Source of the DNA: Escherichia coli
GTDB lineage: Bacteria; Pseudomonadota; Gammaproteobacteria; Enterobacterales; Enterobacteriaceae
Strand: one strand, 5' to 3'
Assembly (NCBI RefSeq): GCF_050920415.1
Contig: NZ_CP169309.1
Length of the DNA stretch: 64,000 bases
Shown here piece after piece: positions 11,423 through 29,215 of this stretch; within the stretch, counting starts at the first letter, position 1; every line of letters begins with the position of its first letter. Position numbers and translations under genes: made by a program. The notes under the pieces are model-generated. The model did not search any database. It was not told the DNA's origin and was given only the letters and a program-made list of their open reading frames with translations.

Positions 11423-12037
11423 TTAGCCGATTTTGTTACGTTGCGCGAATGTGTAAAGATCCATCAGTGATTTACATTCTAATTTTTCCATCAGGCGACT
11501 TTTATACGTGCTGACAGTTTTGTTGCTGATGAACATTTTTTCCGCAATGTCATTATTGTCCTTGCCATCAAGAATATACCTCATGACACTAATTTCTTGT
11601 TTCGATAAGGAGTCGAGTTTTTGCTGGTCGGACGTTAAACTTCCAACAAACCGGTTGAGAGAGAAAGGGAAATAGCAGTAGCCATTTTTTGCAGCTTCAA
11701 TAGCCGCAATGATATTGTTCATGCCTTCTTTTTTACTCACGAATCCATTAGCGCCAGCATCAGCACAATGTTTCCCGTAAAAATGGTCATTTTTAGCGGA
11801 GACGATAATAATAATTCCGCTATATTGGCGCTTCCTCAGCGTTTCTAACACCTGGATACCGTTAACTCCGGGGATATCGACATCAATGATGACGATATCA
11901 GGTTTAAGTGTTTCCACCCGCTGAACGGCACTTCCCCCTTCAGTCAACTCCGCTAAGATTTCAATATCGTTTTTGATCAATAAATTACGAATTGCTGCGA
12001 TAGCAAGAGGATGGTCATCAATAATTATTGCGTTCAT
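11423..12037 (-). CDS. evgA: response regulator EvgA (LuxR/NarL family)
   Basis: 204 aa, receiver plus LuxR HTH; recognised EvgA. Confidence 0.9.
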   Translation of the reverse strand: MNAIIIDDHPLAIAAIRNLLIKNDIEILAELTEGGSAVQRVETLKPDIVIIDVDIPGVNGIQVLETLRKRQYSGIIIIVSAKNDHFYGKHCADAGANGFVSKKEGMNNIIAAIEAAKNGYCYFPFSLNRFVGSLTSDQQKLDSLSKQEISVMRYILDGKDNNDIAEKMFISNKTVSTYKSRLMEKLECKSLMDLYTFAQRNKIG

Positions 12038-12261
12038 AGATTATTCCCTTTGCAATGAAGCATCTCCCTTCTCCCTGTAGTAATACAGACATAAGGCATC
12101 ATCTCATTTTCTCAATCAAAATAAGAAAATTTGAGCTTCCTTTAAGATAATTCAACAAGTATACCATATAAATAGTCGGCATAAATGAAATGTCAACAAT
12201 AAAATCAGGGATAATACCGCTAACTTATAGTTTCAAATGAGTACTATAAGGCTTCTTATTA

Positions 12262-12279
12262 ATCCTACAGGCGTAAGAA
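12262..12279. promoter_or_regulatory. candidate EvgA box in evgA-emrK divergent region (ATCCTACA-gg-CGTAAGAA)
   Basis: Near-consensus EvgA inverted repeat, one mismatch per half-site. Confidence 0.45.
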
Positions 12280-12452
12280 TTGTATTGCAAAAGTCACGGT
12301 TTAGTCCTCTGTTGTATCTTCTGCAACTCCTTTAAATTAGGCCTCCAACGTTCCTGGGATAATGTGTAACACATGCACTGTGTTTGATATGAAGAATGAA
12401 TACTCTTTTCATTCAATTCATAAATTTCATCTATGCGAAATGAGAGATAATA

Positions 12453-13616
12453 GTGGAACAGATTAATTCAAATAAAAAACATTCTGACAGAAGAAAATAT
12501 TTTGCTTTATTAGCAGTGGTTTTATTTATTGCGTTTTCAGGAGCCTATGCCTATTGGTCACTGGAATTAGAAGACATGATTAGTACAGATGACGCCTATG
12601 TTACGGGGAATGCTGATCCAATTTCTGCACAAGTCTCAGGCAGTGTCACTGTCGTTAATCATAAAGATACGAACTTTGTTCGACAGGGTGACATTTTAGT
12701 TTCACTGGATAAAACTGATGCTACGATTGCACTCAATAAAGCTAAAAATAATCTGGCAAATATTGTGCGACAAACGAATAAACTATACTTACAGGATAAA
12801 CAATACAGTGCCGAAGTCGCTTCAGCACGTATCCAGTATCAACAATCTTTAGAAGATTATAATCGTCGTGTGCCGCTAGCAAAGCAGGGGGTTATTTCAA
12901 AAGAAACGCTGGAGCACACCAAAGATACGTTAATAAGTAGCAAAGCGGCATTGAATGCAGCTATTCAGGCTTATAAAGCGAACAAAGCCTTAGTAATGAA
13001 CACACCATTAAATCGCCAGCCACAAGTTGTTGAAGCTGCGGATGCAACCAAAGAAGCCTGGTTAGCGCTTAAGCGTACGGATATTAAGAGTCCGGTTACT
13101 GGTTATATTGCCCAGCGAAGTGTGCAGGTTGGCGAAACAGTGAGTCCTGGACAATCGTTAATGGCTGTCGTACCGGCACGTCAAATGTGGGTTAATGCCA
13201 ACTTTAAAGAAACACAACTCACGGATGTACGGATTGGTCAATCGGTTAATATAATCAGCGATCTTTATGGTGAAAATGTTGTGTTTCATGGTCGGGTGAC
13301 AGGGATCAATATGGGAACCGGCAATGCGTTCTCCTTATTACCTGCACAAAATGCGACAGGGAACTGGATCAAAATCGTTCAGCGTGTACCGGTTGAGGTG
13401 TCTCTGGATCCAAAAGAACTCATGGAACATCCCTTGCGCATTGGTTTATCGATGACTGCAACCATTGATACCAGGAACGAAGACATTGCCGATATGCCTG
13501 ATCTGGCTTCATCCGTGACGTCAATGCCTGCTTACACCAGTAAGGCCTTAGTTATCGATACCAGTCCGATAGAAAAAGAGATTAACAACATTATTTCTCA
13601 TAATGGACAACTTTAA
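12453..13616 (+). CDS. emrK: multidrug efflux membrane-fusion protein EmrK
   Basis: 387 aa EmrA-family MFP; recognised EmrK. Confidence 0.85.
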   Translation: MEQINSNKKHSDRRKYFALLAVVLFIAFSGAYAYWSLELEDMISTDDAYVTGNADPISAQVSGSVTVVNHKDTNFVRQGDILVSLDKTDATIALNKAKNNLANIVRQTNKLYLQDKQYSAEVASARIQYQQSLEDYNRRVPLAKQGVISKETLEHTKDTLISSKAALNAAIQAYKANKALVMNTPLNRQPQVVEAADATKEAWLALKRTDIKSPVTGYIAQRSVQVGETVSPGQSLMAVVPARQMWVNANFKETQLTDVRIGQSVNIISDLYGENVVFHGRVTGINMGTGNAFSLLPAQNATGNWIKIVQRVPVEVSLDPKELMEHPLRIGLSMTATIDTRNEDIADMPDLASSVTSMPAYTSKALVIDTSPIEKEINNIISHNGQL

Positions 13617-15154
13617 TGGCAATCACTAAATCAACTCCGGCACCATTAACCGGTGGGACGTTATGGTGCGTCACTATTGCATTGTCATTAGCGACGTTTA
13701 TGCAAATGTTGGACTCCACTATTTCTAACGTCGCAATACCCACAATATCTGGCTTTCTCGGAGCATCAACGGACGAAGGCACATGGGTTATCACATCGTT
13801 TGGCGTAGCAAATGCCATTGCGATCCCTGTTACCGGCAGGCTGGCACAAAGAATAGGCGAATTAAGGTTATTTTTACTATCAGTAACCTTCTTTTCGCTG
13901 TCTTCATTAATGTGTAGTCTTTCGACTAATCTTGATGTTCTTATATTTTTTAGAGTCGTCCAGGGATTAATGGCGGGGCCGTTAATTCCATTGTCACAGA
14001 GTTTATTATTAAGGAATTATCCGCCAGAAAAAAGAACATTTGCTTTGGCGTTATGGTCAATGACCGTAATTATCGCTCCGATTTGTGGGCCGATATTGGG
14101 TGGCTATATTTGTGATAACTTTAGTTGGGGATGGATATTTTTAATCAATGTCCCTATGGGGATTATCGTCCTGACATTATGTTTAACTTTACTTAAAGGA
14201 AGAGAAACTGAAACTTCACCGGTCAAAATGAATTTACCAGGGTTGACCCTGTTAGTGCTCGGTGTTGGTGGCTTGCAAATTATGCTTGATAAAGGGCGCG
14301 ATCTGGATTGGTTTAACTCGAGTACAATCATAATATTAACAATAGTGTCAATTATTTCTCTGATCTCTTTAGTCATTTGGGAGTCGACCTCAGAGAACCC
14401 AATTCTTGACCTCAGTTTATTCAAGTCGCGTAATTTCACCATTGGTATTGTGTGTATCACATGCGCATATTTATTTTACTCTGGGGCGATTGTACTTATG
14501 CCGCAGTTGCTGCAGGAAACTATGGGGTATAATGCGATATGGGCCGGGCTTGCCTATGCGCCAATCGGCATAATGCCACTATTAATATCGCCTTTAATAG
14601 GACGTTATGGCAACAAAATTGATATGCGTGCATTGGTTACATTTAGTTTTTTGATGTATGCGGTTTGCTATTACTGGCGTTCTGTGACATTTATGCCAAC
14701 GATTGATTTCACAGGCATCATTTTGCCACAGTTTTTCCAGGGATTCGCCGTTGCCTGTTTCTTTTTACCCTTAACAACGATTTCGTTTTCAGGGTTGCCA
14801 GATAATAAATTTGCCAATGCCTCGAGTATGAGTAATTTTTTTCGTACCCTGTCAGGATCAGTTGGTACGTCGTTGACAATGACGTTGTGGGGACGACGCG
14901 AATCGTTACACCATAGTCAGTTGACAGCAACCATCGATCAATTTAACCCCGTGTTTAATTCATCATCACAAATTATGGATAAATACTATGGTTCGCTTTC
15001 AGGGGTTCTTAATGAAATTAATAATGAAATAACTCAGCAGTCACTTTCAATTTCTGCAAATGAGATTTTCCGTATGGCGGCTATTGCTTTTATCTTACTT
15101 ACGGTATTGGTTTGGTTTGCGAAACCGCCGTTTACAGCGAAAGGTGTTGGGTGA
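13616..15154 (+). CDS. emrY: MFS multidrug efflux pump EmrY
   Basis: 512 aa 14-TMS MFS; recognised EmrY. Confidence 0.85.
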   Translation: MAITKSTPAPLTGGTLWCVTIALSLATFMQMLDSTISNVAIPTISGFLGASTDEGTWVITSFGVANAIAIPVTGRLAQRIGELRLFLLSVTFFSLSSLMCSLSTNLDVLIFFRVVQGLMAGPLIPLSQSLLLRNYPPEKRTFALALWSMTVIIAPICGPILGGYICDNFSWGWIFLINVPMGIIVLTLCLTLLKGRETETSPVKMNLPGLTLLVLGVGGLQIMLDKGRDLDWFNSSTIIILTIVSIISLISLVIWESTSENPILDLSLFKSRNFTIGIVCITCAYLFYSGAIVLMPQLLQETMGYNAIWAGLAYAPIGIMPLLISPLIGRYGNKIDMRALVTFSFLMYAVCYYWRSVTFMPTIDFTGIILPQFFQGFAVACFFLPLTTISFSGLPDNKFANASSMSNFFRTLSGSVGTSLTMTLWGRRESLHHSQLTATIDQFNPVFNSSSQIMDKYYGSLSGVLNEINNEITQQSLSISANEIFRMAAIAFILLTVLVWFAKPPFTAKGVG

Positions 15155-15262
15155 TGGTAAAAAGAGAGAGCTATAGCAGGTAAGACGGTAGAATCTTAAG
15201 CCTGCGCCATCGGCAGCATCGTTCACCCAGGGAAAGGATGGTGATGCTGCGTTGAAACGTTA

Positions 15263-16591
15263 TTAACGGCCTTTAGCCAGATATTGCTTCATCTCTTCTT
15301 CCGGCACCATTCCACCTCCTGTCGCCCACACCAGATGAGTGGCATTACGCAGTTGTTCTGTGCTGAAACCTTGCATCTGTTGGTAACTTACTGATGCGCA
15401 CACGCGCTGAGGCCCAGCCATACCCGCCAGTGCTGAAGGTTCAAGACGAATGTCTTCTTCCTGCGCCAGCCAGCCAAGCATGTCATACATGGTTTGATCG
15501 CTAAGGGTATAGAAGCCATCCAGCAGACGCTCCATTGCTCGCCCGACAAAGCCTGATGCGCGACCAACAGCAAGGCCATCCGCTGCGGTAAGGTTGTCGA
15601 TACCAATATCCTGAACAGAAATCTGATTGTGTAGTCCGGTATGGACGCCTAACAGCATACAAGGAGAGTGCGTGGGTTCGGCAAAAAAGCAGTGAACATG
15701 ATCGCCAAATGCCAGTTTAAGACCGAATGCGACGCCACCAGGACCACCGCCAACGCCACACGGCAGATAGACAAACAGAGGGTTACCAGCATCGACGATA
15801 CGACCTTGCTGGGCAAATTGCGCTTTAAGACGCTGGCCTGCGACGGAATACCCAAGGAACAACGTGCGGGAATTCTCGTCATCAATAAAGAAACAGTTCG
15901 GGTCAGACTGCGCTGCTTTACGTCCTTCCTCGACGGCAACCCCATAATCTTGCTCATATTCCACGACCGTAACGCCATGGCTGCGCAGTTTCGCTTTTTT
16001 CCATGCCCGGGCATCAGCAGACATATGTACTGTCACCTTAAAGCCAATGCGGGCGCTCATAATACCGATTGATAACCCCAGATTTCCGGTTGAGCCCACA
16101 GCAATGCTGTATTGGCTAAAGAACTGCTTAAACTCCGGAGAAAGCAGTTTGCTGTAGTCATCTTCAAGCGTCAGCAACCCTGCTTCCAGAGCCAGTTTTT
16201 CTGCATGTGCCAGGGCTTCATAAATCCCGCCGCGTGCTTTTATGGAGCCGGAAATAGGCAAATGGCTATCTTTTTTCAGTAACAGTTGCCCGCTGATCGG
16301 TTGCTGATATTCCTTTTCCAGCCGTTTTTGCATAGCCGGAATGGCAACCAGTTCTGATTCAATAATCCCTCCAGAGGCAGCCGTTTCAGGAAATGCTTTT
16401 GCCAGATAGGGGGCAAAACGAGATAAGCGCGCATGGGCGTCTTGAACATCCTGTTCGGTCAGGCCAACATAAGGTAAACCTTCAGCCAATGAGGTCGTGC
16501 CAGGATTGAACCAGGTGGTTTCTTTAAGAGCAACCAGATCCTTTACCAACGGATACTGGGCGATGAGCGAGTTCATTTTAGCGTTTTCCAT
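15263..16591 (-). CDS. dsdA: D-serine dehydratase (PLP-dependent)
   Basis: 442 aa; recognised DsdA. Confidence 0.9.
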
Positions 16592-16606
16592 AGTACGTCT
16601 CTTTGC

Positions 16607-16795
16607 GCTTAGATGATAAATGACAGCAGGAATGTGCCCGCCAGAGCGACGACTGAAGCGATAAATGTCGCTGTCGTATAGTATTTATATGTTTCACTGA
16701 GCGTAGCGCCGCAAAATTGTTTCATCAGCCAGAAAAACGAGTCCGTAACGATCGTGCAGCCAATCGCAATAATTTCCGGGCTGATGTCTGGTTAC
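16607..16795 (-). pseudogene. dsdX: 3'-terminal remnant of D-serine permease dsdX (last ~57 codons; 5' part deleted)
   Basis: Reverse strand reads [56 protein letters not shown]-stop, a GntP-family C-terminus; reading frame hits a stop just upstream, so no intact gene. Confidence 0.7.
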
Positions 16796-17047
16796 AGCCA
16801 CAGCACAATGATCCATATTTATATTTTTTCTCCGGGTGGGTGATGCCAGTCGGCATGTTTTACCTACTTGTCTGCATGGTGACTCGTTGGCGAGAACAGA
16901 GGCGGAATTGGTTACAATTGTCCGGGAATTCTTGTTATTTTTTACTGTATTGTCGTGTCGGGTGATAGGACGTTAAGAATATCGCTGGATCTCGCCAGTG
17001 ACGTCTGTTTCTGCTACAGTGCCCGTTTTACGGCAAACGGCTTGGGT

Positions 17048-18043
17048 ATGGCTTCATTAAAGGATGTCGCACGCCTGGCGGGAGTGTCGATGATGACTGT
17101 CTCCCGGGTGATGCATAATGCAGAATCTGTGCGTCCTGCAACGCGTGACCGCGTATTGCAGGCAATCCAAACCCTGAATTATGTTCCTGATCTTTCCGCT
17201 CGTAAGATGCGCGCTCAGGGACGTAAGCCGTCGACTCTCGCCGTGCTGGCGCAGGATACTGCTACCACTCCTTTCTCTGTTGATATTCTGCTTGCCATTG
17301 AACAAACCGCCAGCGAGTTTGGCTGGAATAGTTTTTTAATCAATATTTTTTCTGAAGATGACGCTGCCCGCGCGGCACGTCAGCTGCTTGCCCTCCGTCC
17401 GGATGGCATTATCTATACTACAATGGGACTGAGGCATATCACGCTGCCTGAGTCTCTGCATGGTGAAAATATTGTATTGGCGAACTGTGTGGCGGATGAC
17501 CCAGCGTTACCCAGTTATATCCCTGATGATTACACTGCCCAATATGAAGCAACACAGCATTTGCTCGCGGCGGGCTATCGTCAACCGTTATGCTTCTGGC
17601 TACCGGAAGGTGCGTTGGCAACAGGGTATCGTCGGCAGGGATTTGAGCAGGCCTGGCGTGATGCTGGACGAGATCTGGCTGAGGTGAAACAATTTCACAT
17701 GGCCATAGGTGATGATCACTACACCGATCTCGCAAGTATACTCAATGCCCACTTCCAGTCTGGAAAACCAGATTTTGATGTTCTGATTTGTGGTAACGAT
17801 CGCGCAGCCTTTGTGGCTTATCAGGTTCTTCTGGCGAAGGGGGTACGTATCCCGCAGGATGTCGCCGTAATGGGCTTTGATAATCTGGTTGGCGTCGGGC
17901 ATCTGTTTTTACCGCCGCTGACCACAATTCAGCTTCCACATGACATTATCGGGCGGGAAGCTGCATTGCATATTATTGAAGGTCGTGAAGGGGGAAGGGT
18001 AACGCAGATCCCTTGCCCGCTGTTGCTCCGTTGTTCCACCTGA
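17048..18043 (+). CDS. cscR: LacI-family sucrose operon repressor CscR (start chosen at MASLKDVA)
   Basis: N-terminal LacI HTH plus periplasmic-binding-like domain. Confidence 0.8.
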   Translation: MASLKDVARLAGVSMMTVSRVMHNAESVRPATRDRVLQAIQTLNYVPDLSARKMRAQGRKPSTLAVLAQDTATTPFSVDILLAIEQTASEFGWNSFLINIFSEDDAARAARQLLALRPDGIIYTTMGLRHITLPESLHGENIVLANCVADDPALPSYIPDDYTAQYEATQHLLAAGYRQPLCFWLPEGALATGYRRQGFEQAWRDAGRDLAEVKQFHMAIGDDHYTDLASILNAHFQSGKPDFDVLICGNDRAAFVAYQVLLAKGVRIPQDVAVMGFDNLVGVGHLFLPPLTTIQLPHDIIGREAALHIIEGREGGRVTQIPCPLLLRCST

Positions 18044-18050
18044 TATTATG

Positions 18051-19493
18051 TTACCCCAGTTGCCAGAGTGCTCCATGTTGCAGCACGGCCACTCCGTGGG
18101 CGGCATAGAGCGACAGTTCCCGTTCTTCTGGCTGCGGATAGATTCGGCTACTCATCACAGCTTCCCCGTCGTTAATAAATACTTCCACGGATGATGTATC
18201 GATAAATATCCTTAGGGCGAGCGTGTCACGCTGCGGGAGGGGAATACTACGGTAACCATCTAAATTCTCGTGTGGGTAATACCGCCACAAAACAAGTCGC
18301 TCAGATTGGTTATCAATATACAGCCGCATTCCCGTGCCGAGCTGTAATCCGTAATGTTCGGCATCGCTGTTCTTCAGAGCCCAGTGCAACTGAATCTCAA
18401 CCGCTTGCGCGTTTTCCTGCAAAACATATTTGTTGCTGATTGTGTGGGGAGAGATTGATTGATGCTGCTGGCGTAACGACTCAGCTTCGTGTACCGGGCG
18501 TTGTAGGAGTTTGCCATTGCTCTCTGAAAGCTCGCGCGCCAGCGTCATGCAGCCTGCCCAGCCTTCACGTTTTGAGGGCATTGGCGATTCCCACATATCC
18601 ATCCAGCCGATAACAATACGCCGACCATCCTTCGCTAAAAAGCTTTGTGGTGCATAAAAGTCATGCCCATTATCAAGTTCAGTAAAATGCCCGGATTGTG
18701 CAAAAAGTCGTCCTGGCGACCATATTCCGGGTATTACACCACTTTGAAAGCGATTTCGATAATTGTATCCCTCGGCATTCATTCCCTGCGGGGAAAACAT
18801 CAGATAATGTTGATCGCCAAGGCTGAAAAAGTCCGGACATTCCCACATATAGCTTTCACCCGCATCAGCGTGGGCCAGTACGCGATCGAAAGTCCATTCA
18901 CGCAATGAACTGCCGCGATAAAGCAGGATCTGTCCCGTGTTGCCTGGGTCTTTCGCCCCGACTACCATCCACCAGGTGTCGGCTTCACGCCACACTTTAG
19001 GATCGCGGAAGTGCATGATTCCTTCTGGTGGAGTGAGGATCACACCTTGTTTCTCGAAATGAATACCATCCCGGCTGGTAGCCAGACATTGTACTTCACG
19101 AATTGCATCGTCATTACCTGCACCATCGAGCCAGACGTGGCCGGTGTAGATAAGTGAGAGGACACCATTGTCATCAACAGCACTACCTGAAAAACACCCG
19201 TCTTTGTCATTCTCGTCTCCTGGCGCTAGCGCAATAGGCTCGTGCTGCCAGTGGATCATATCGTCGCTGGTGGCATGTCCCCAGTGCATTGGCCCCCAGT
19301 GTTCGCTCATCGGGTGATGCTGATAAAACGCGTGATAACGATTGTTAAACCAGATCAGGCCGTTTGGATCGTTCATCCACCCGGCTGGAGGCGCGAGGTG
19401 AAAATGGGGATAAAAAGTATTCCCCCGGCGCTCGTGAAGTTTTGCTAGTGCGTTTTGCGCCGCATGCAATCGAGATTGCGTCATTTTAATCAT
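18051..19493 (-). CDS. cscA: sucrose-6-phosphate hydrolase / invertase CscA (GH32)
   Basis: GH32 motifs WMNDPNG, FRDP, WECPD. Confidence 0.85.
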   Translation of the reverse strand: MIKMTQSRLHAAQNALAKLHERRGNTFYPHFHLAPPAGWMNDPNGLIWFNNRYHAFYQHHPMSEHWGPMHWGHATSDDMIHWQHEPIALAPGDENDKDGCFSGSAVDDNGVLSLIYTGHVWLDGAGNDDAIREVQCLATSRDGIHFEKQGVILTPPEGIMHFRDPKVWREADTWWMVVGAKDPGNTGQILLYRGSSLREWTFDRVLAHADAGESYMWECPDFFSLGDQHYLMFSPQGMNAEGYNYRNRFQSGVIPGIWSPGRLFAQSGHFTELDNGHDFYAPQSFLAKDGRRIVIGWMDMWESPMPSKREGWAGCMTLARELSESNGKLLQRPVHEAESLRQQHQSISPHTISNKYVLQENAQAVEIQLHWALKNSDAEHYGLQLGTGMRLYIDNQSERLVLWRYYPHENLDGYRSIPLPQRDTLALRIFIDTSSVEVFINDGEAVMSSRIYPQPEERELSLYAAHGVAVLQHGALWQLG

Positions 19494-19518
19494 CCTGGTT
19501 AAGCAAATTTGGTGAATT

Positions 19519-19530
19519 GTTAACGTTAAC
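19519..19530. promoter_or_regulatory. perfect 12-bp palindrome GTTAACGTTAAC, candidate CscR operator 1
   Basis: Palindrome in cscA-cscK divergent intergenic region. Confidence 0.5.
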
Positions 19531-19563
19531 TTTTATAAAAATAAAGCCCCTTATCTTTATAAA

Positions 19564-19579
19564 TGTGATTAATATCACA
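19564..19579. promoter_or_regulatory. candidate CRP site TGTGA-N6-TCACA
   Basis: Perfect match to CRP consensus half-sites. Confidence 0.5.
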
Positions 19580-19582
19580 AAT

Positions 19583-19594
19583 GTTAACGTTAAC
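19583..19594. promoter_or_regulatory. second copy of GTTAACGTTAAC palindrome, candidate CscR operator 2
   Basis: Identical palindrome 64 bp from the first. Confidence 0.5.
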
Positions 19595-19699
19595 TATGAC
19601 GTTTTGTGATCGAATGTGCATGTTTTAGTAAATCCATGACGATTTTGCGAAAAAGAGGTTTATCACTATGCGTAAGTCAGATGAATTTGAGGGAAAAAA

Positions 19700-20614
19700 A
19701 TGTCAGCCAAAGTATGGGTTTTAGGGGATGCGGTTGTCGATCTCTTGCCTGAATCAGACGGGCGCCTACTGCCTTGTCCTGGCGGCGCGCCAGCTAACGT
19801 TGCGGTGGGAATCGCCAGATTAGGCGGAATAAGTGGGTTTATAGGCCGGGTGGGTGATGATCCTTTTGGCGCGTTAATGCAAAGAACGCTGCTAACGGAG
19901 GGAGTCGATATCACGTATCTGAAGCAGGATGAATGGCACCGAACATCCACGGTGCTTGTCGATCTGAACGATCAGGGGGAACGTTCATTTACGTTTATGG
20001 TCCGCCCTGGTGCCGATCTTTTTTTAGAGACGACTGACTTGCCCTTCTGGCGACATGGCGAATGGTTACATCTCTGTTCTATTGCGTTGTCTGCTGAACC
20101 TTCGCGTACCAGCGCATTTACTGCGATGACGGCGATCCGGCATGCCGGAGGTTTTGTCAGCTTCGATCCCAATATTCGTGAAGATCTGTGGCAAGACGAG
20201 CATTTGCTCCGCTTGTGTTTGCGACAGGCGCTACAACTGGCGGATGTCGTCAAGCTCTCGGAAGAAGAATGGCGACTTATCAGCGGAAAAACACAGAACG
20301 ATCGGGATATATGTGCTCTGGCAAAAGAGTATGAGATCGCCATGCTGTTGGTGACTAAAGGTGCAGAAGGGGTGGTGGTCTGTTATCGAGGACAAGTTCA
20401 CCATTTTGCTGGAATGTCTGTGAATTGTGTCGATAGCACGGGGGCGGGAGATGCGTTCGTTGCCGGGTTACTCACAGGTCTTTCCTCTACGGGATTAGAG
20501 ACCGATGAGAGAGAAATGCGACGAATTATCGATCTCGCTCAACGTTGTGGAGCGCTTGCAGTAACGGCGAAAGGGGCAATGACAGCGCTGCCATGTCGAC
20601 AAGATCTGGAATAG
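19700..20614 (+). CDS. cscK: fructokinase CscK (PfkB family)
   Basis: PfkB motifs GGAPANVA and DSTGAGDAF. Confidence 0.85.
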   Translation: MSAKVWVLGDAVVDLLPESDGRLLPCPGGAPANVAVGIARLGGISGFIGRVGDDPFGALMQRTLLTEGVDITYLKQDEWHRTSTVLVDLNDQGERSFTFMVRPGADLFLETTDLPFWRHGEWLHLCSIALSAEPSRTSAFTAMTAIRHAGGFVSFDPNIREDLWQDEHLLRLCLRQALQLADVVKLSEEEWRLISGKTQNDRDICALAKEYEIAMLLVTKGAEGVVVCYRGQVHHFAGMSVNCVDSTGAGDAFVAGLLTGLSSTGLETDEREMRRIIDLAQRCGALAVTAKGAMTALPCRQDLE

Positions 20615-20685
20615 TGAGAAATAAACGGCGAGGCCGTTCTTGTCTCTGAATAGGACGTGAATATTTTAACGACAGGCAGGTAATT

Positions 20686-21933
20686 ATGGCACTGAATATA
20701 CCATTCAGAAATGTGTACTATCGTTTTGCATCCAGTTACTCATTTCTCTTTTTTATTTCCTGGTCGCTGTGGTGGTCGTTATACGCTATTTGGCTGAAAG
20801 GACATCTAGGGTTGACTGGGACGGAATTAGGTACACTTTATTCGGTCAACCAGTTTACCAGTATTCTATTTATGATGGTCTACGGCATCGTCCAGGATAA
20901 ACTCGGTCTGAAGAAACCGCTTATCTGGTGTATGAGTTTCATCCTGGTCTTGACCGGACCGTTTATGATTTACGTTTATGAACCGTTACTGCAAAGCAAT
21001 TTTTCTGTAGGTCTAATTTTGGGGGCGCTCTTTTTTGGCTTGGGGTATCTGGCGGGCTGCGGTCTGCTTGATAGCTTCACCGAAAAAATGGCACGAAATT
21101 TTCATTTCGAATATGGAACAGCGCGCGCCTGGGGATCTTTTGGCTATGCGATTGGCGCGTTCTTTGCTGGCATATTTTTCAGTATCAGTCCCCATATCAA
21201 CTTCTGGTTGGTTTCGCTATTTGGCGCTGTATTTATGATGATCAACATGCGTTTTAAATATCAGGATCAGCAGTGCGTAGCGGCAGATGCGGGAGGGGTA
21301 AAAAAAGAGGATTTTATTGCAGTTTTCAAGGACCGAAACTTCTGGATTTTCGTCATATTTATTGTGGGGACGTGGTCTTTCTATAACATTTTTGATCAAC
21401 AGCTCTTTCCTGTTTTTTATGCAGGTTTATTCGAATCACACGATGTAGGAACGCGCCTGTATGGTTATCTCAACTCATTCCAGGTTGTACTCGAAGCGCT
21501 GTGCATGGCCATTATTCCTTTCTTTGTTAATCGGGTAGGGCCAAAAAATGCATTACTTATCGGTGTTGTGATTATGGCGTTGCGTATTCTTTCCTGCGCA
21601 CTGTTCGTTAATCCCTGGATTATTTCATTAGTGAAGCTTTTACATGCCATTGAGGTTCCACTGTGTGTCATTTCCGTCTTCAAATACAGCGTGGCAAACT
21701 TTGATAAACGCCTGTCGTCGACGATCTTTCTGATTGGTTTTCAAATTGCCAGTTCGTTGGGGATTGTGTTGCTTTCAACGCCGACTGGAATACTTTTTGA
21801 CCATGCAGGTTACCAGACGGTTTTCTTCGTAATTTCGGGTATTGTCTGCCTGATGTTGTTATTTGGCATTTTCTTCCTGAGTAAAAAACGTGAGCAAATG
21901 GTGATGGAAACGCCTGTACCTTCTGCAATATAG
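20686..21933 (+). CDS. cscB: sucrose:H+ symporter CscB (MFS, LacY-like)
   Basis: 415 aa 12-TMS MFS permease. Confidence 0.85.
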   Translation: MALNIPFRNVYYRFASSYSFLFFISWSLWWSLYAIWLKGHLGLTGTELGTLYSVNQFTSILFMMVYGIVQDKLGLKKPLIWCMSFILVLTGPFMIYVYEPLLQSNFSVGLILGALFFGLGYLAGCGLLDSFTEKMARNFHFEYGTARAWGSFGYAIGAFFAGIFFSISPHINFWLVSLFGAVFMMINMRFKYQDQQCVAADAGGVKKEDFIAVFKDRNFWIFVIFIVGTWSFYNIFDQQLFPVFYAGLFESHDVGTRLYGYLNSFQVVLEALCMAIIPFFVNRVGPKNALLIGVVIMALRILSCALFVNPWIISLVKLLHAIEVPLCVISVFKYSVANFDKRLSSTIFLIGFQIASSLGIVLLSTPTGILFDHAGYQTVFFVISGIVCLMLLFGIFFLSKKREQMVMETPVPSAI

Positions 21934-22363
21934 ACGTAAACTCTTTCCGGTTGTTGTCGATAGCTCTATATCCCTCAACCGGAAAATAATAATACCAAAA
22001 TGCTTAGCGCGGCTAATAATCGCCTAATCCAAACGCCTCATTCATGTTCTGGAACAGCCGCTCAAATGTACTCAGGATACGCGGTTCGCTGATTTCCAGG
22101 AAATTGTCGTAATTCAGCGACCTGTCCCGTGTATCACGGGCCTGCTAATCCATCAAGGAATGCATTGCGGAGTGAAGTATCGAGTCAAGCCAGATTTCGC
22201 GATCAGGATTCTGTGTGATGATTACATTGCCAGGCCCGGGGCTGTTTAGTCATCGCCGCACAGTGCTGAGATTTCAACCTGTTGCAGGGAAAATGAGTAG
22301 ATTTAGGGCAAGTGTGCTGCCAAACCCAACTTTTACGCGGGGAAGGTAGATTTCGTTGGAAGG

Positions 22364-22383
22364 ATAAATGGTGTCCCCTGCAG
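22364..22383. repeat. prophage att core, torI-proximal copy (ATAAATGGTGTCCCCTGCAG)
   Basis: Exact 20-bp direct repeat of 62521-62540, which covers the 3' end of argW. Confidence 0.8.
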
Positions 22384-22456
22384 ACATCTACTTGAAGCGA
22401 CAGGGGATTGATTGGAATGGTGTTTTTTAGATGTGAGAAATATTTTACCCGCTATT

Positions 22457-22657
22457 TTACCCATTGGCGCGGCTTAAGAGCTTATTTTTGAATTCACAAT
22501 GGTCACGATATAACCATCTTGCTCGCCCGTGGATAACTTTGGCTTTTGGCAGGTCGCCGGACTTAATCCGGTCATAGATGAAGGTTTTACCAAAGCCAGT
22601 ATCGGCCATGATGAATTTCAAATCAACCAGTGAATCAGGCTGTAGTTCGTGTTGCAT
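22457..22657 (-). CDS. torI: TorI-like excisionase / recombination directionality factor (AlpA-Xis family)
   Basis: 66 aa; recognised as KplE1 TorI; sits at prophage end opposite the integrase. Confidence 0.8.
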   Translation of the reverse strand: MQHELQPDSLVDLKFIMADTGFGKTFIYDRIKSGDLPKAKVIHGRARWLYRDHCEFKNKLLSRANG

Positions 22658-22702
22658 GAGTGCTATCTCCGAATAGGGAATCGAACCTGCAAATCAGGCA
22701 AT

Positions 22703-22722
22703 AAAAAACCGCATTGATGCGG
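22703..22722 (-). terminator. intrinsic terminator at the end of the early-left operon, just upstream of torI
   Basis: Reverse strand: CCGCA-TCAA-TGCGG hairpin followed by TTTTTTAT. Confidence 0.5.
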
Positions 22723-22782
22723 CGATGGTAGGTCTGGATATCATTGAGAAATGAACAGGCCTCATCGAGTGTGAGGCTGTGG

Positions 22783-23127
22783 TTAGTCCTTGCGTAACTC
22801 GCTAATTCTTCTGTAAGTCTCTGGTGCTTTGTTTCCGTGTATCTTCATTTCAGACTTCAACAGAGCAACGAGGGAATCCCATTCGTTGAGGATGCCTTTG
22901 AATGCCGGAACGCGCTTTGCAACCTTGTTGAATGAATCTCTGATTTCTGGAATCTGCTCAACAAGTGCAACGCATCGTCTGAAATCGGCTGCGTCATGGG
23001 GAGCGCCGAAGCTATGACCATAGATATTCTTTTTCAGTCCACATGCGATTGAGGCAAGAGTTGCGCTACTGATGCCAACATCGCCAGTCGATTGCCATTT
23101 CAAAACCTTCATAGCCAAATCTGACAT
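22783..23127 (-). CDS. hypothetical early-left (ea-region) protein, 114 aa
   Basis: ORF in leftward operon; no family recognised. Confidence 0.45.
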   Translation of the reverse strand: MSDLAMKVLKWQSTGDVGISSATLASIACGLKKNIYGHSFGAPHDAADFRRCVALVEQIPEIRDSFNKVAKRVPAFKGILNEWDSLVALLKSEMKIHGNKAPETYRRISELRKD

Positions 23128-23227
23128 TTCTTGTCTCCATAAAACAAAACTCGCCGTAGCGAGTTCAGATAAAATAAATCCCCGCGAGTGCGAGGATTGT
23201 TATTCACCTTTAACGGCAAGTTGCAGG

Positions 23228-23896
23228 TTAGCCACGGTTTACCTCCTGAGGCGGTTCTGCTGCAAAATACGCAATACCTTTATCCCAGATGGATTTAATG
23301 GTCGTCCACGTGACTGGTACTTTAATTTCAATCCGCCCGCTACCGTCACAGGTATCGCAATCATCATCGCCAAAGCATTCCGGGCAGCTGATAAACGTAG
23401 TTTCTGAAAATTCACCGGATAGCGCACCCTTAGCGCCGTTCTCGGCTGTTAGTCTCTTCGGCACCATGACCCAACCATCCGGAGTTACCGGAGAGTTGCC
23501 CGACAGCTCGTTCAACTTGTAAGTTTGGCTTACAGGTTCGGCTTCCAGTTCTGCTATGCGTTTTTTTGCTGCTTCCAGCTCAACACGCAGCCTCCCAACC
23601 GTTAGTGCAATATTCTCGTTCTCCTGGTCGCGGTGTTTGATGTATTGCTGGTTTCTTTCCCGTTCATCCAGCAGCGCCTGCACTACTTCAGGGTTGAAAG
23701 CTGCGATATAACGAGCGTTGTTCTCTGCGTTTTTCTGTCCATCAAAGCCGGTCCATTTGATAACGTCTTCACATCGTTTATCACCGGGCGTATGCACCGC
23801 ATACGTACCAGTACCCGGTGAAATAAATGCGGACCATTCGCCTTGTGTTGCCTTTTTTGCTATCTCACGCAGTGCCTGATAGTCAATCTTGCTCAC
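23228..23896 (-). CDS. Ea22-like protein; start moved to GTG at 23896 preceded by AAGGAGG
   Basis: Coiled-coil middle, Cys-rich C-terminus; strong SD before GTG; longer ORF to 23989 overlaps the upstream gene. Confidence 0.45.
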   Translation of the reverse strand: MSKIDYQALREIAKKATQGEWSAFISPGTGTYAVHTPGDKRCEDVIKWTGFDGQKNAENNARYIAAFNPEVVQALLDERERNQQYIKHRDQENENIALTVGRLRVELEAAKKRIAELEAEPVSQTYKLNELSGNSPVTPDGWVMVPKRLTAENGAKGALSGEFSETTFISCPECFGDDDCDTCDGSGRIEIKVPVTWTTIKSIWDKGIAYFAAEPPQEVNRG

Positions 23897-24200
23897 TGGC
23901 TGCCTCCTTTGCTGGGCTTTCGAACTTCTGAGTGGTTGTATCAAACTCAAGCAACTTAACCACGTCATCAAACAGGACATAATCGCCATCAGAATCTTCA
24001 GTCATGTCAGCGCCACAATCCTGACCGAACGAGTCACAACCATCCATATCAAGCTCGTATCGCTTGAGTTTTGCGATATTTGATAAATTCAGCGCCAGTA
24101 CAGCAAGGTCATAAACCTCGTCAGCGGTATACCCGGCACCATGCCCATACATTTCAATGCGGGATATGATTTCTTCTACACGTTGTTTTGTGATCGTCAT
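23883..24200 (-). CDS. hypothetical acidic protein, 105 aa
   Basis: ORF translationally coupled to neighbours. Confidence 0.45.
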   Translation of the reverse strand: MTITKQRVEEIISRIEMYGHGAGYTADEVYDLAVLALNLSNIAKLKRYELDMDGCDSFGQDCGADMTEDSDGDYVLFDDVVKLLEFDTTTQKFESPAKEAASEQD

Positions 24201-24742
24201 TTTTGCTCACCTCCCTGTTCTTCCAGAAAAATACGCATAGCCTCAAGCATCTCTTCGGTGTCATACGGTGACAACTTGTCACGCAGGATGTGCTCAATGC
24301 TGTTAATGAACTTGCGGATTGCTTTGCGTTCAATTTCAGCCAGGAAAGCATCGGTGGCTGGGGTGTCTGATTGCAGAGACTTTGCGCGATAGTCATTCCA
24401 CCCTCTTGCATACATGGGATTAACTTGCACTCCATCTTTTACGCAATATGCCTGCCCTCCACGGTTGATAACATTGATTTCGTCCATAGCGCCAGCCTTC
24501 AGCCCCGCATTCTCCGCCGCCAGCGCCGAAAACTTCTCGTGTGCCAACTTAACAGCTGCATCAGCCTGCTTAATTGACTCAATCGCTTTCTGGTGGTCTT
24601 CGTACAGAGCCGAAATCTTGGCCTCCGCTTCAGCAAATTTACGCACCAGATATTCAGCGTTTGTTTCGTTAACCTTTAAATCTCGGGGGATGCATTTACC
24701 TTTCAGAAATCCATCCATCTCAATTAGTGACATTTGTTTCAT
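24197..24742 (-). CDS. hypothetical protein, 181 aa
   Basis: ORF in leftward operon. Confidence 0.45.
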
Positions 24743-24903
24743 TTCTTCCCACTCCGCAACATCGCGTTCAGATATTTGTTTTGATTCACTGAAGGAAAAG
24801 AATTTCTCTTAAGCAATTCCTCTCTCGATGGCATTGGCTTTACGCGTTGGCGAATAATCATTTCTGCCGGAAGAATTCCGGGATTGTATGCAAGTCCTCT
24901 CAT
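24739..24903 (-). CDS. small hypothetical protein, 54 aa
   Basis: ATG preceded by AAGAGG; ATGA overlap with downstream gene; below ORF-track size cut-off. Confidence 0.3.
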
Positions 24904-24919
24904 GGTAAATTCCTCTTTG

Positions 24920-25234
24920 TTAATTTATTCGTATGCCTGTTCTCTCTTCATCAAGTTTTTTTAGCTTGTATCGCATAGCTCTTACTGAATAAATTGAGCG
25001 GCAGGTTGCAATTGCTATTTCTTCTGCGGAGAACTTACCGAAAAGTGATACTTCGGCTCTTGTCCAGCGTCTTCCACGAAGTCGGCTAACAATGTCAGCT
25101 CCAATCCTTGTTGCTTTCGCCATTACTGCTTTTTCAGTCCTTTCCAGTTTTTCAGCGATAACTTCAACTGGCATTGTCGCCGCCACTTCGCGCAAGAAAT
25201 CGACTTCCCATTTCTCCCATGGAGTCTTTTTCAT
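24920..25234 (-). CDS. hypothetical protein, 104 aa
   Basis: ORF in leftward operon. Confidence 0.45.
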
Positions 25235-25245
25235 AGGCGATACCG

Positions 25246-25734
25246 TTATTTGATAAGAAGTGAAGGTTTCCCAACTTTGAGTTGAGCGCCGGGGATATTT
25301 ATTCCTGCTTTTAGTTGGTGTTTGATTGCCAGTTTGTCGGCTTTAATTGTTGTTTCAAACTCAACGTATTCTGGAGGAAGGGCGCTTGAGTCGATGATTT
25401 CTACAGTTTCTGACGGTTTGCGGATTGTTACCTGGTGAATACCTGCTCGAATCTTTTTCTTTCCAACCATTTCAAGCGATGACGCTATATACGTCATAAT
25501 GCTATCAATCTTATTTTGAATTACTGCTGCTCTTTCATTCAGTGACTTTGCCTCTTCCTTGAGGCGTTCAGCATAACCAGACTCATTTTTAATAATGGCA
25601 AGAAGTTGCTCTATTTTATCGGTAAATTCTCCTTCCATGCCTTCTATTGTGTCAGCAATCATCTCTGGTTCTAAATCTGAATCCATCAATTTTGCGTATT
25701 CATTGGCAATTTCATACAGTTTGCTCACTGGCAA
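25246..25734 (-). CDS. Gp157-like protein (often found with RecT/Erf recombinases)
   Basis: 162 aa; position immediately downstream of recT-like gene; family call from memory. Confidence 0.4.
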   Translation of the reverse strand: MPVSKLYEIANEYAKLMDSDLEPEMIADTIEGMEGEFTDKIEQLLAIIKNESGYAERLKEEAKSLNERAAVIQNKIDSIMTYIASSLEMVGKKKIRAGIHQVTIRKPSETVEIIDSSALPPEYVEFETTIKADKLAIKHQLKAGINIPGAQLKVGKPSLLIK

Positions 25735-26623
25735 CCTCCAGTTTCGCTTTGCATTCTATGTAAATGGCTTGTACGTTCTGCTGCAATTTCATTCCAGATG
25801 TCAGGCGATATGCTTCTGCAAAATATCGCTTCAAATCATCCATGTTTTCTGCCTGAGCCATTTCATCGCAAAGAAGTTGTGCTTTATCCATTATTTCCTG
25901 CTGGCGTTTCCGTTCATCTTCGCGGATATCTTCCTCTGATTTGTGCGGCATAACTGGTTCAGTCCATACACCTTCTTCTTCGTTTAGTACGTGAATAGCA
26001 CTATCAAGACGTGATGCCTTAGGCCAATACTTGCTTGCACGCTTCACGACCGTCTTTCGCGCCATCTCATTCCAGTGATTTACCCATGGTCCTTTATCGC
26101 TGAATGCCGCCTTGCTTGTTTTCCTTACAGCCTCAATTTCAGCAATACTCATCTCTTCCGTTAGATAATCACCTGCCGGCGTCTTAACTGTGCAGTAAAC
26201 GCCAACGATATCACCACGATCACCGAAGGCGTTGTATTTATGGGTTGGTGCTTTATCAAGCCCGTTTGACTCATAGGTATCGTTAGCATGAACAAGTTTT
26301 GCCTGACCCCATGAGATAACACCAGACTCCATTGCAATATGGAGCAATCCCATATAGCTGATATCAAGGCAAACCATGCCGTCGCGCGGAACCAGATAAG
26401 CCAGTTTGCTGGCCGGGTTTAAGGTGATGCCGATCGCCGCAACATTGATGATGGCGTTCTGTGCGCTGGTTGGATTTGCCAGTGCTGTTTTAGCCAGGTA
26501 ATCATTTTTCTGGAAATACTGAATTGCAAACTGGCTTTCCTTAGCCCATGTCACCGTCTGTTCAGTCAATGCTCCGCAGAATAACTGCTCCTGCTGTTTA
26601 ACGAATTCAACGATATTGCTCAT
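25712..26623 (-). CDS. RecT-family single-strand annealing recombinase
   Basis: 303 aa; motif GPWVNHWNEMARKTVVKRASKYWP resembles RecT GPWVTHWEEMAKKTAIRRLFKYLP. Confidence 0.7.
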   Translation of the reverse strand: MSNIVEFVKQQEQLFCGALTEQTVTWAKESQFAIQYFQKNDYLAKTALANPTSAQNAIINVAAIGITLNPASKLAYLVPRDGMVCLDISYMGLLHIAMESGVISWGQAKLVHANDTYESNGLDKAPTHKYNAFGDRGDIVGVYCTVKTPAGDYLTEEMSIAEIEAVRKTSKAAFSDKGPWVNHWNEMARKTVVKRASKYWPKASRLDSAIHVLNEEEGVWTEPVMPHKSEEDIREDERKRQQEIMDKAQLLCDEMAQAENMDDLKRYFAEAYRLTSGMKLQQNVQAIYIECKAKLEVASEQTV

Positions 26624-26931
26624 GCAGCTTCTCCATAAATATGTCTGCGTTTGAATATTGCGAAGGCATATTCAGCCTTAACTCTTTCGGTTATTGCATC
26701 CCAGAACCATTCAGCGGCTTTTTCCTGATAGTTACAGTCATCATCTTCCAGCCAGTCGATAGCGTCCTTAGTATGTTCATCTGGTTTATATGAGCGAAGC
26801 ATTTCGCTTATTGGGTCGCAACGTTTGCAGAGGCGATCAACTTCACTGTTGATTCGTTCGTAATCTTCATCAGTAAAACTTGCGATTATTTGCGATATTT
26901 CACGCTTATCATTCAGAGTCAGAATCATCAT
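26620..26931 (-). CDS. hypothetical protein at the gam/arf position, 103 aa
   Basis: ORF between kil-like and recT-like genes. Confidence 0.4.
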   Translation of the reverse strand: MMILTLNDKREISQIIASFTDEDYERINSEVDRLCKRCDPISEMLRSYKPDEHTKDAIDWLEDDDCNYQEKAAEWFWDAITERVKAEYAFAIFKRRHIYGEAA

Positions 26932-27012
26932 CTTTCTCCTGTTCTTTGTGCTGATTGAGCATTTTGTTCATCTGACGAATGAATTCTTCGTCTGACCAGT
27001 TATCTGTAAAAC

Positions 27013-27165
27013 TCATTTCCTGCGATACCACGGAAGATTGATGGCTGATTTCATCGCTTTATTTGCTTCAAGCCACATTTTTGAATCACCAATAAATCTG
27101 GCTATTACTGCTTTGTTCTGTGCAGCACGAAGCATCTGGTGATTAATGGCTATTTCATTGCGCAT
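27013..27165 (-). CDS. kil: Kil-like small protein (candidate FtsZ inhibitor)
   Basis: 50-aa ORF with GGAGG SD; ARFIGDSKMWLEA resembles remembered lambda Kil motif; below ORF-track cut-off. Confidence 0.4.
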   Translation of the reverse strand: MRNEIAINHQMLRAAQNKAVIARFIGDSKMWLEANKAMKSAINLPWYRRK

Positions 27166-27284
27166 AACGCCTCCATTTGTTTCTTTGCTGCTCTGATTAA
27201 TTGTTTAACTCGGCGTGATAATTCAGATTCGTGCGGGTAGAAAGCGGACATGACGCCGCTACCCGCGAGCTGAAAGTGCATCAT
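27150..27284 (-). CDS. CIII-like small protein (candidate FtsH/HflB inhibitor)
   Basis: 44-aa ORF with AAGGAG SD; central ESELSRRVKQLIRAAKK resembles lambda CIII helix ESLLERITRKL. Confidence 0.35.
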   Translation of the reverse strand: MMHFQLAGSGVMSAFYPHESELSRRVKQLIRAAKKQMEALCAMK

Positions 27285-27374
27285 GGGTAACTCCTTATAT
27301 TTGATTGCATAACGAAAACGCCTCGAGTGAAGCGTTATTGGTATGCGGTAAAGCCGCCAACAGGCGGCTATTTG

Positions 27375-27608
27375 CTATTGATTCTTTTCAAGAACATCAA
27401 TGATGTCGTCCGGGTTGTCTCCGTTGTCTTCACAAAATGCTTCGAATTCAGCCCATTTCGCGCTGATAAAATCAATTACTCTCATTAATTCGTATTCCAT
27501 ATTTTTCTCCAGACCAAAAGAATGCCGCCCATATAGAGCGGCAAGACTATCAAGGAATGATTTCCAATAATCAGAACAAGTCGGCTCCTGTTTAGTTACG
27601 AGCGACAT
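27375..27608 (-). CDS. hypothetical acidic protein, 77 aa (ral/ea10 position)
   Basis: ORF between N-like and cIII-like genes. Confidence 0.4.
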   Translation of the reverse strand: MSLVTKQEPTCSDYWKSFLDSLAALYGRHSFGLEKNMEYELMRVIDFISAKWAEFEAFCEDNGDNPDDIIDVLEKNQ

Positions 27609-27769
27609 TGCTCCGTGTATTCACTCGTTGGAATGAATACACAGTGCAGTGTTTATTAGTATGCCTGTCTTTTAACCACATCAGGCTCGGTGGTTCTCGT
27701 GTACCCCTACAGCGAGAAATCGGATAAACTCTATTCACCCCCTACAGAGAGAATGATGGAGATTCACCG

Positions 27770-28309
27770 ATGAGTAACTGGTGGCAGGAACTGTTACGTT
27801 TCTTCCTGCGTGGTCTTACGCTACAACAGTTAATTCATATGCTTATTATTTTAATTGCCCTGATAATAATCACCCCAGCATCAATTAAAGAGTGGGTAGA
27901 TATAAGGAACCCCGAAATACTTCCAGATCACTGGATGTATTACGCAATGCTTTTGTGTATCAGTTATGTTCTGAACAGGGTGATGGAGTTTATATTTCTG
28001 GCATCTTCAGACAGATATAAAAAATATCTCAGTAAGAGAGATGAGGATAAAGTAATTGTGGAGACTGAGCGCCTGTTCAATTCTCTGAGTATTCAGGAAA
28101 AAGAGGTTTTAGCATTTGCTGTTATGGCAAATAACAAAATCGTACTTAAGCACGGCGATCCGGTCGCTTTATCTCTTATGAGAAAAGGCCTTCTCCATCG
28201 CTCAGGTGTGACTTACAGCGCGTCAGGTAAAGAGAAATTTGTTATACCTGACGTCTGGTTCCATGAGTGTTATATGCGCTTTGCTGGTAAAGCTGATGAG
28301 CTAATTTAG
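27770..28309 (+). CDS. sieB: SieB-like superinfection exclusion membrane protein
   Basis: 179 aa; two N-terminal TM helices; adjacent to N; family assignment from memory. Confidence 0.5.
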   Translation: MSNWWQELLRFFLRGLTLQQLIHMLIILIALIIITPASIKEWVDIRNPEILPDHWMYYAMLLCISYVLNRVMEFIFLASSDRYKKYLSKRDEDKVIVETERLFNSLSIQEKEVLAFAVMANNKIVLKHGDPVALSLMRKGLLHRSGVTYSASGKEKFVIPDVWFHECYMRFAGKADELI

Positions 28310-28330
28310 TTCCTCGACGGCGGGGTATCG

Positions 28331-28714
28331 TCATCTCGCCGTCAGTTGTTTTGATTTCCGGTAGCCTGCTGCGTAAAGAGCTACATTTGGAAGACATACA
28401 CCAGTTTCTGGTTGCTTATGTCCAAACTCATTCGCGTACACAATGGCCGCTCTCTCCAGATTGCGTCTGTATTCTTTCTGTTGCCAGATCACGTCCTGTG
28501 CCATGAACTTAATTGGCTTAGCGTCTTCTATGCGCTCAGGCGTTTCGTGAGTACCTTTAGCCTGAATCTGCGCTCTGCTTAGAGTAGGGCGGTGTAATAC
28601 TTCTGAACTTATTGCTTCTTCGCGGGCCAGTACGCCGTTAGCTAATGCCTTTGCCTTTAAACGCTCACGACGACGAGAACGTGAATTGCCTTTGAACTGA
28701 GTTCTGCGTGTCAT
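28331..28714 (-). CDS. N-like antitermination protein (P22 gp24 type)
   Basis: Arg-rich N-terminus RRTQFKGNSRSRRRER; C-terminus LPNVALYAAGYRKSKQLTAR; downstream of pL/nutL. Confidence 0.7.
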   Translation of the reverse strand: MTRRTQFKGNSRSRRRERLKAKALANGVLAREEAISSEVLHRPTLSRAQIQAKGTHETPERIEDAKPIKFMAQDVIWQQKEYRRNLERAAIVYANEFGHKQPETGVCLPNVALYAAGYRKSKQLTAR

Positions 28715-28879
28715 ATAGACCTCCTGATGAACTTTGGTGGTGTGGTAGGTGGGAGACCCATTTCGACCTGTTTCGGCCTACTTCAATTCGGCAATAGTCC
28801 CGCAGGCCTCGCCGCTTTACGTGCGACATATTCCCGTCCATGAACCCTTCACCACACCCCAAAGTTCACTTTGGTTATT

Positions 28880-28894
28880 GCGCTTTGTCAGCGC
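28880..28894 (-). promoter_or_regulatory. nutL boxB-like hairpin (reverse strand GCGCTGACAAAGCGC)
   Basis: 5-bp stem / 5-nt loop between pL and N; matches remembered P22-type boxB. Confidence 0.5.
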
Positions 28895-28962
28895 CGTAGA
28901 TTCATATTCGAATCGTTGTATATTCACCGCCCTGGTGAGTAGTGCGTCCTGCTGATGTGTTT

Positions 28963-29208: not shown

Positions 29209-29215
29209 TTGTGTG

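Follow-up and report, generated by a model that had tools for sequence, protein, structure and literature searches.

The 215 bp between the divergent genes cscA and cscK in the analysed stretch of Escherichia coli DNA (64 kb, hereafter the window) very probably form the bidirectional control region of the csc sucrose genes, in which CscR would act on two identical palindromes and cAMP-CRP would activate the divergent promoters. Both palindromes and a CRP site lie inside this gap, and cscR is a neighbouring gene. That the csc genes are controlled by two CscR operators and CRP is correct and has been known from publications since 2002; what is added here are refinements of a known system and not a new kind of element, namely: a further CRP site, the wide distribution and rigid spacing of the module, a probable -10 element within an operator, a perfect CRP core that is specific to an allele and an invariant block in front of cscK. 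According to the proposed mechanism CscR, the LacI-family repressor encoded next door, would bind the two CG-centred palindromes, probably with one dimer on each (we infer the oligomeric state). CscR on the copy within the cscA promoter core would block RNA polymerase, while the second copy, 64 bp away on the cscK side, would be wedged between two CRP sites and be the one at which a mutation relieves the repression of the regulon. CscR would be released by sucrose or one of its products, and cAMP-CRP at CRP site 1, probably also at CRP site 2, would activate both divergent promoters when glucose is absent (coordinates in the table). CscR repression, the operator up-mutation and the cAMP dependence have been reported in the literature, which is cited here second-hand through later papers; our own analysis shows exactly where the sites are, how rare they are, that their geometry is constant over about 60 species and that they are found alongside regulators with the same recognition helix.

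The csc gene set adjoins dsdA and consists, according to the listing of open reading frames and NCBIfam scans, of genes for a LacI-family regulator, a GH32 sucrose hydrolase, a fructokinase and a LacY-type permease. This is the arrangement of the csc genes at the dsd locus of E. coli (cscR-cscA / cscK-cscB, with cscA divergent from cscKB), and the divergent flanking genes are those that had been named in the initial annotation. The gene coordinates were fixed with the RefSeq annotation of NZ_CP027579, which is identical to the window over the csc stretch. The mechanically derived reading frames were over-extended for cscR (start 16955, 362 aa) and cscA (480 aa). For cscR, the NCBIfam LacI-family matches begin around residue 31-35 of the reading frame, whose translation reads M32 and then ASLKDVARLAGVSMMTVSR; the RefSeq coordinates agree with a start at 17048, which gives a protein with the N-terminus MASLKDVARLAGVSMMTVSR. 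The closest solved structure is PDB 6NDI ('Transcriptional regulator', 334 aa), to which CscR aligns from end to end (E-value 2.6e-112) and which is usable as a template for modelling the binding of effector and DNA. The CscA protein of the window shares 98% identity with its counterpart in Escherichia sp. MOD1-EC7003 and 93% with the one in the E. coli species representative. The matching RefSeq genome annotation further places a truncated pseudogene (16573-16791) between dsdA and cscR, and torI with hypothetical genes just 3' of cscB (about 22457-23100); the pseudogene remnant and the torI region fit the known rearrangement and prophage hot spot. A tRNA search of positions 12000-30000, in which argW was sought near the locus, found none.

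Table. Genes and control elements of the csc locus (positions refer to the window)
Feature	Position	Strand	Remarks
dsdA	15263-16591	-	ORF listing and NCBIfam scan
cscR	17048-18043	+	LacI-family repressor, 331 aa
cscA	18051-19484	-	sucrose hydrolase (GH32 invertase), 477 aa; TIGR01322 scrB_fam, 479 bits; RefSeq coordinates agree
candidate cscA -10, AACAAT	19516-19521	-	putative; overlaps the 3' half of the cscA-side operator
cscA-proximal putative CscR operator	19519-19530	.	exact palindrome GTTAACGTTAAC; invariant in 10 csc-type loci
alternative cscA -10, TATAAA	19532-19537	-	in line with the published layout (operator on the start site)
candidate -35 region for AACAAT, CTTTAT	19541-19546	-	putative; conserved block
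CRP site 1	19564-19579	.	TGTGATTAATATCACA; 22-mer at 19561-19582, AAATGTGATTAATATCACAAAT
cscK-side (distal) putative CscR operator	19583-19594	.	exact palindrome GTTAACGTTAAC; invariant in 10 csc-type loci
CRP site 2 (CRP-like)	19605-19620	.	TGTGATCGAATGTGCA; near half perfect, far half weak
invariant block, GTTTATCA	19658-19665	+	35-42 bp upstream of the cscK start codon
cscK	19700-20614	+	fructokinase; NF006957, 501 bits; RefSeq CDS coordinates agree
cscB	20686-21933	+	sucrose:H+ symporter, LacY-type oligosaccharide MFS; TIGR00882, 590 bits; RefSeq CDS coordinates agree

The two 12-bp palindromes stand in the sequence exactly as first annotated: GTTAACGTTAAC is its own reverse complement, is centred on CG and has no further exact copy within the 64 kb. 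Operators of the LacI/GalR family are even-length palindromes with a central CG, and they are usually found 30-140 bp upstream of the regulated start codon (PMC4052901). The cscA-side copy lies 35-46 bp from the ATG of cscA (19484) and the cscK-side copy 106-117 bp from the ATG of cscK (19700), both inside that range, and a cognate LacI-family gene, cscR, is part of the same locus. In none of 100 dinucleotide-preserving shuffles was a copy of the 12-mer encountered, while palindrome-like sites with at most 2 mismatches occur elsewhere in the window at about background (4 versus 1.9 expected for all sites). It is extremely improbable that the palindromes are a product of chance or without function, for instance a duplicated pair of HpaI-type hexamers: only the A+T-rich character of the region counts in favour, whereas the exact sequence is missing from the shuffles and conservation of the pair, with its spacing unchanged, extends from Escherichia to Yersinia, Serratia and Klebsiella. 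By this conservation the readings of the palindromes as chance, hairpins or restriction sites are ruled out.

The same repeats have been described before. As cited in PMC11251922, Jahreis et al. (2002) recognized putative CscR operators in a 12-bp inverted repeat that occurs twice between cscA and cscK, mapped an up-mutation (derepressing) to one of the two copies, placed a putative Crp-cAMP site next to the -35 of cscA and demonstrated catabolite repression; the control elements were noted to be conserved in five species (PMC11251922). Repression is believed to run via operator sites of cscA and of cscKB that lie between the genes, the same change in the cscKB operator was recovered again in E. 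coli W, a cyaA::Tn5 mutant does not use sucrose, and a bidirectional promoter with two cAMP-CrpA sites was described by Sabri et al. (2013), as cited in the same paper (PMC3938415). The 'cscKB operator' of these publications presumably is the cscK-side palindrome. The csc system of E. coli EC3132 and E. coli W (Jahreis 2002; Sabri 2013) is thus the same system as that of the window, as far as the citing papers represent it: the genes, the dsdA neighbour, the repeats, the Crp-cAMP control and the second CRP site all agree. CscR and ScrR motifs are also contained in the LacI-family catalogue of Ravcheev et al. 2014 (PMC4052901). Engineering and evolution studies report that deletion or loss of function of cscR leads to derepression of the csc genes; we found in that literature no promoter architecture, only this derepression. 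A literature search for mapped csc start sites had PMC11251922 as its sole match, and in the csc literature, the primary studies of which are known to us through citing papers, no direct CscR binding (EMSA or footprint) was found. The assignment of the palindromes to CscR is therefore best described as supported, by genetic evidence that is second-hand and by comparative evidence. In this form the earlier proposal of dual CscR operators with catabolite control is upheld, both by the published assignment and by the conservation of the sites together with CscR-type regulators.

CRP site 1 has the perfect TGTGA-N6-TCACA core that had been claimed for it, and no other perfect core is present in the window. 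Its 22-mer agrees by eye with the consensus AAATGTGATCTAGATCACATTT at 16 of the 18 arm positions. Perfect cores are expected about 0.06 times in 64 kb by arithmetic, and sequences with at most 1 mismatch are not enriched (4 versus 2.5 expected); the core alone is thus only mildly unlikely and the significance of the site derives from its position and its conservation. It does lie between the palindromes that were said to bracket it, but off-centre, the gap being 3 bp on the right and 33 bp on the left. CRP site 2, which is absent from the initial annotation, lies 10 bp beyond the cscK-side operator, and the centres of the two CRP sites are 41 bp apart.

For comparison, species-representative genomes were scanned with CscA, which yielded 80 loci of Enterobacterales, ranging from Escherichia to Yersinia, Serratia, Klebsiella, Providencia and Proteus. 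A pair of operators (sites like GTTAACGTTAAC) was present in about 63 of the 80, with a spacing of exactly 64 bp in 45, of 62-63 bp in most others and of 68-69 bp in Proteus. With the invertase on the plus strand the elements always succeed one another in the same way: the distal operator, 3 bp on a CRP-like core, after another 33 bp the proximal operator, and then the downstream gene. The downstream gene is cscA in the E. coli-type loci, and in most other genera a LacY-type permease that is followed by the invertase. The permease of the latter loci is only around 40% identical to CscB and the module there drives an operon in one direction (L006-L080; e.g. L019 3641-3716 and L077 3635-3710), with the regulator gene either upstream and divergent or downstream and convergent.

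The 45 modules with a 64-bp spacing were lined up without gaps to obtain a column-wise footprint, in which six conserved blocks stand out from drifting sequence: CRP-like site 2 next to the distal operator, then CRP site 1, and finally the proximal operator, which has a CTT block ahead of it and a trailing AAT behind it. The operators carry an information content of 8-9 of 9, and the palindrome extends over 16 bp in many loci compared with 12 bp in the window. A CRP-like core with 0-2 mismatches is found 3 bp from the distal operator in 42 of the 45 modules (versus 0.04% of random positions), and CRP site 2 with 0-3 mismatches at its fixed offset in all 45 (versus 0.3%). CRP site 2 is also retained in loci of Yersinia (L019) and Serratia (L044) without a divergent neighbour upstream, which argues that it is part of an ancestral one-directional module and was not added for the sake of cscK. 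In loci that are not of the E. coli type (L016-L080), CRP site 1 has TTAACA as its 6-bp spacer in almost every case (TGTGATTAACATCACA; module positions 20-25); this sequence resembles an operator half-site (GTTAAC) and a CRP spacer is not normally so conserved, although shared ancestry could account for it. A variant of the module is found in Proteus (L045-L048, L051, L053, L057), with the operators GATAACGTTAAC and GTTATCGTTAAC at 68-69 bp, no recognisable CRP site between them, and a divergent kinase (about 43% identical to CscK) and the invertase on the two sides.

The sites travel with the regulator. A regulator homologue is encoded within 5 kb in nearly all loci with palindromes, and the palindromes are missing from the four loci that contain the invertase and lack a homologue of the regulator and the permease (L039, L041, L042, L058). 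The CscR-type regulators are 48-95% identical overall and in all of them the HTH recognition helix reads VS[ML]MTVSR and the hinge YVPDxSA[RK], as is expected if these diverged proteins read the same operator; site and DNA-reading head are hence conserved together across species, as for LacI/GalR operators. The conservation of the operators, CRP site 1 and their spacing in dozens of genera supports the putative assignment of the operators to CscR. Binding by another LacI-family protein in place of CscR (Cra/FruR, or ScrR in strains with scr) is very unlikely. An AACGTT-like central core is common to many LacI-family operators, and scr and csc are both present in some E. coli strains (PMC11251922); against this, the sites accompany a CscR-type regulator gene whose recognition helix is conserved alongside, loss of cscR derepresses csc, the motifs of non-orthologous sucrose regulators are reported to be clearly different (PMC4052901) and there is no other good copy of the site in the 64-kb window. 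The control of the scrY promoter of pUR400 and of related scr loci by ScrR does resemble that of csc in having two short inverted-repeat operators upstream and downstream of the promoter, an upstream CRP site and induction by sucrose (PMC11251922). The scr system differs from csc in that ScrR is not orthologous to CscR (it belongs to the FruR branch), in that the scr operators are 14 bp long with another motif (PMC11251922, PMC4052901) and in that the CRP site of scr shows little conservation between species (PMC11251922), while the csc CRP sites are well conserved.

The succession of CRP site 2, 10 bp, operator, 3 bp and CRP site 1 is invariant in the 45 modules, which stem from many genera, while the neighbouring sequence drifts. 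It recalls the complexes of CytR and CRP at deoP2 and cdd, in which a LacI-family operator likewise has CRP sites on both sides at a conserved CRP-CRP distance; in csc this distance is 41 bp in the 45 modules. The CRP centres at deoP2 are roughly 52 bp apart, which differs from the csc value. By analogy CscR at the distal operator could contact or displace the CRP dimers between which it sits (anti-activation), or CRP could aid the binding of CscR; we rate this reading as rather unlikely. CytR acts in this way between tandem CRP sites (PMC3454398), the 22-bp contact regions of CRP would abut or slightly overlap a 16-bp operator, the arrangement persists where a divergent upstream gene is lacking (the above loci of Yersinia and Serratia), and the reading could explain how cscK is repressed from an operator far upstream of its promoter. 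On the other hand, CytR operators are weak, degenerate octamer repeats that require CRP, whereas the csc operator between the CRP sites is a perfect CG-centred palindrome, identical to the copy in the promoter core, and is expected to bind its repressor alone; csc moreover has this second operator in the promoter core, which suffices for ordinary repression, and the Proteus-type loci keep the operator pair (68-69 bp) without a recognisable CRP site 1. We know of no cooperativity between CscR and CRP.

The constant spacing of the operators may also be read in terms of a loop. In lac, the order of the elements is auxiliary operator, CRP site, promoter and main operator. The csc elements follow the same order, and in both systems a LacI-family repressor regulates a LacY-type permease; the systems differ in the spacing of the operators (92 bp in lac versus 64 bp in csc) and in the additional CRP site that csc has beyond the auxiliary operator. 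One CscR oligomer could then bridge both operators and close a 64-bp loop around CRP site 1 and the promoter, like lac O3-CAP-O1, but we give this only a low probability. The distance of 64 bp from centre to centre in the 45 modules (62-64 bp in nearly all others) amounts to about six helical turns, which would place both operators on one face of the helix, and the order of the elements mirrors that of lac. A loop of 64 bp would, however, be very tight, and the fixed spacing could as well stem from the geometry of promoter and CRP. Furthermore, the 331 aa of CscR match PurR up to about residue 306 of 340 and contain no C-terminal extension like the tetramerisation helix of LacI: the protein ends with the core domain, as is also seen from its end-to-end alignment with 6NDI. 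The missing C-terminal tetramerisation segment makes looping doubtful, although other routes to an oligomer may exist.

Returning to the preferred reading, with repression by CscR at each operator and activation by cAMP-CRP, the promoter elements that may be in use are inferred from conserved hexamers. On the cscA strand, AACAAT is the sole sigma70-like -10 that is consistently placed: a -10-like hexamer is found at its position in 84% of the 45 modules, and it is the best position by PWM in 23 of them (27 if the adjacent offset is counted as well). The hexamer is made up of the last bases of the proximal operator and the conserved AAT, which is kept although it breaks the palindrome. The candidate -35 region CTTTAT belongs to the conserved CTT block; in 10 csc-type loci its bases C, T, T, A and T do not vary, and in the 45 modules the T at module position 49 hardly does. 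The alternative -10, TATAAA, scores the same as AACAAT in the window (5.5 bits) and is not conserved in Citrobacter, Tatumella and Pluralibacter; its use would put the transcription start inside the operator, as in the published putative layout. CRP activates from centres at -41.5, -61.5, -71.5 and so on relative to the transcription start. The centre of CRP site 1 would lie near -61.5 to -62.5 with AACAAT, and near -46.5, which is not a canonical position, with TATAAA. The layout based on AACAAT predicts a start around 19509, CRP site 1 around -62, CRP site 2 around -103, the proximal operator from -21 to -10 and the distal operator around -79. On these grounds a class I layout of the cscA promoter, with AACAAT as putative -10, is favoured over the published layout with the operator on the start site. 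A class II model, with CRP site 1 at -41.5, is disfavoured: module positions 50-58 contain no consistently placed -10-like hexamer.

For cscK, none of the 10 csc-type loci, Pluralibacter among them, departs from the block GTTTATCA, while the sequence around it does change, and this block may contain the -10 (TATCAC, 19661-19666). A PWM scan for the cscK promoter gave candidates of 3-4 bits (-10 at 19605, 19612, 19628, 19659-19661 and 19682) without a clear winner, and a simple consensus scan for promoters and terminators over 19400-19760 gave a single match, which lies within cscK on the wrong strand; the intergenic region had none. If cscK uses TATCAC, CRP site 2 would be centred around -61.5 and the cscK-side operator would lie about 85 bp upstream of the start, in which case the known operator mutation needs an explanation beyond simple steric occlusion.

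A more far-reaching claim can be formulated for the module as a whole (CRP-operator-CRP-promoter-operator, with spacings of 41 and 64 bp), namely that CscR acts via CRP and that the cscA-type promoter is of class I with its -10 in the operator; taken together we regard this as improbable. If it is true, CscR at the upstream operator would work by anti-activation or in a repression complex with CRP-bent DNA and not only as a roadblock, and cscA-type promoters would be of class I with the -10 AACAAT inside an operator, contrary to the published putative layout. The discovery value of the region itself is small, as publication of the csc sites and of their roles dates from 2002 and later work has returned to them. 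The csc cassette has been widely moved into production strains and an exact map of its control aids rational promoter engineering, a value that is modest; the fixed geometry across many genera provides a compact natural test case of a LacI-type dimer and CRP that share 100 bp.

The variation within csc-type loci was inspected in an alignment of ten cscA-cscK intergenic regions: those of the window, three ordinary E. coli alleles (L082-L084, including O157:H7), Escherichia sp., the E. coli species representative, two Citrobacter amalonaticus, Tatumella and Pluralibacter. Both operators are invariant in these ten loci, as is the TGTGATC of CRP site 2, and the surrounding intergenic DNA diverges to a mean column identity of 84%. 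CRP site 1 is variable: the three ordinary E. coli alleles, including that of O157:H7, read TGCGATGAATATCACA and thus TGCGA, so that the consensus core of the first annotation holds for the window and is specific to its allele. Compared with the csc genes of EC3132 and W, the window represents a minority allele, and the perfect core of CRP site 1 is a feature of that allele; the strength of the CRP site may differ between csc alleles. The control region is found in 2663 of 5426 complete E. coli genomes, most of them about 95% identical and only 37 matching at ≥99%, which, together with the CscA identities given above, hints that the csc allele of the window (17048-21933, control region 19400-19760) is a distinct lineage or an imported allele.
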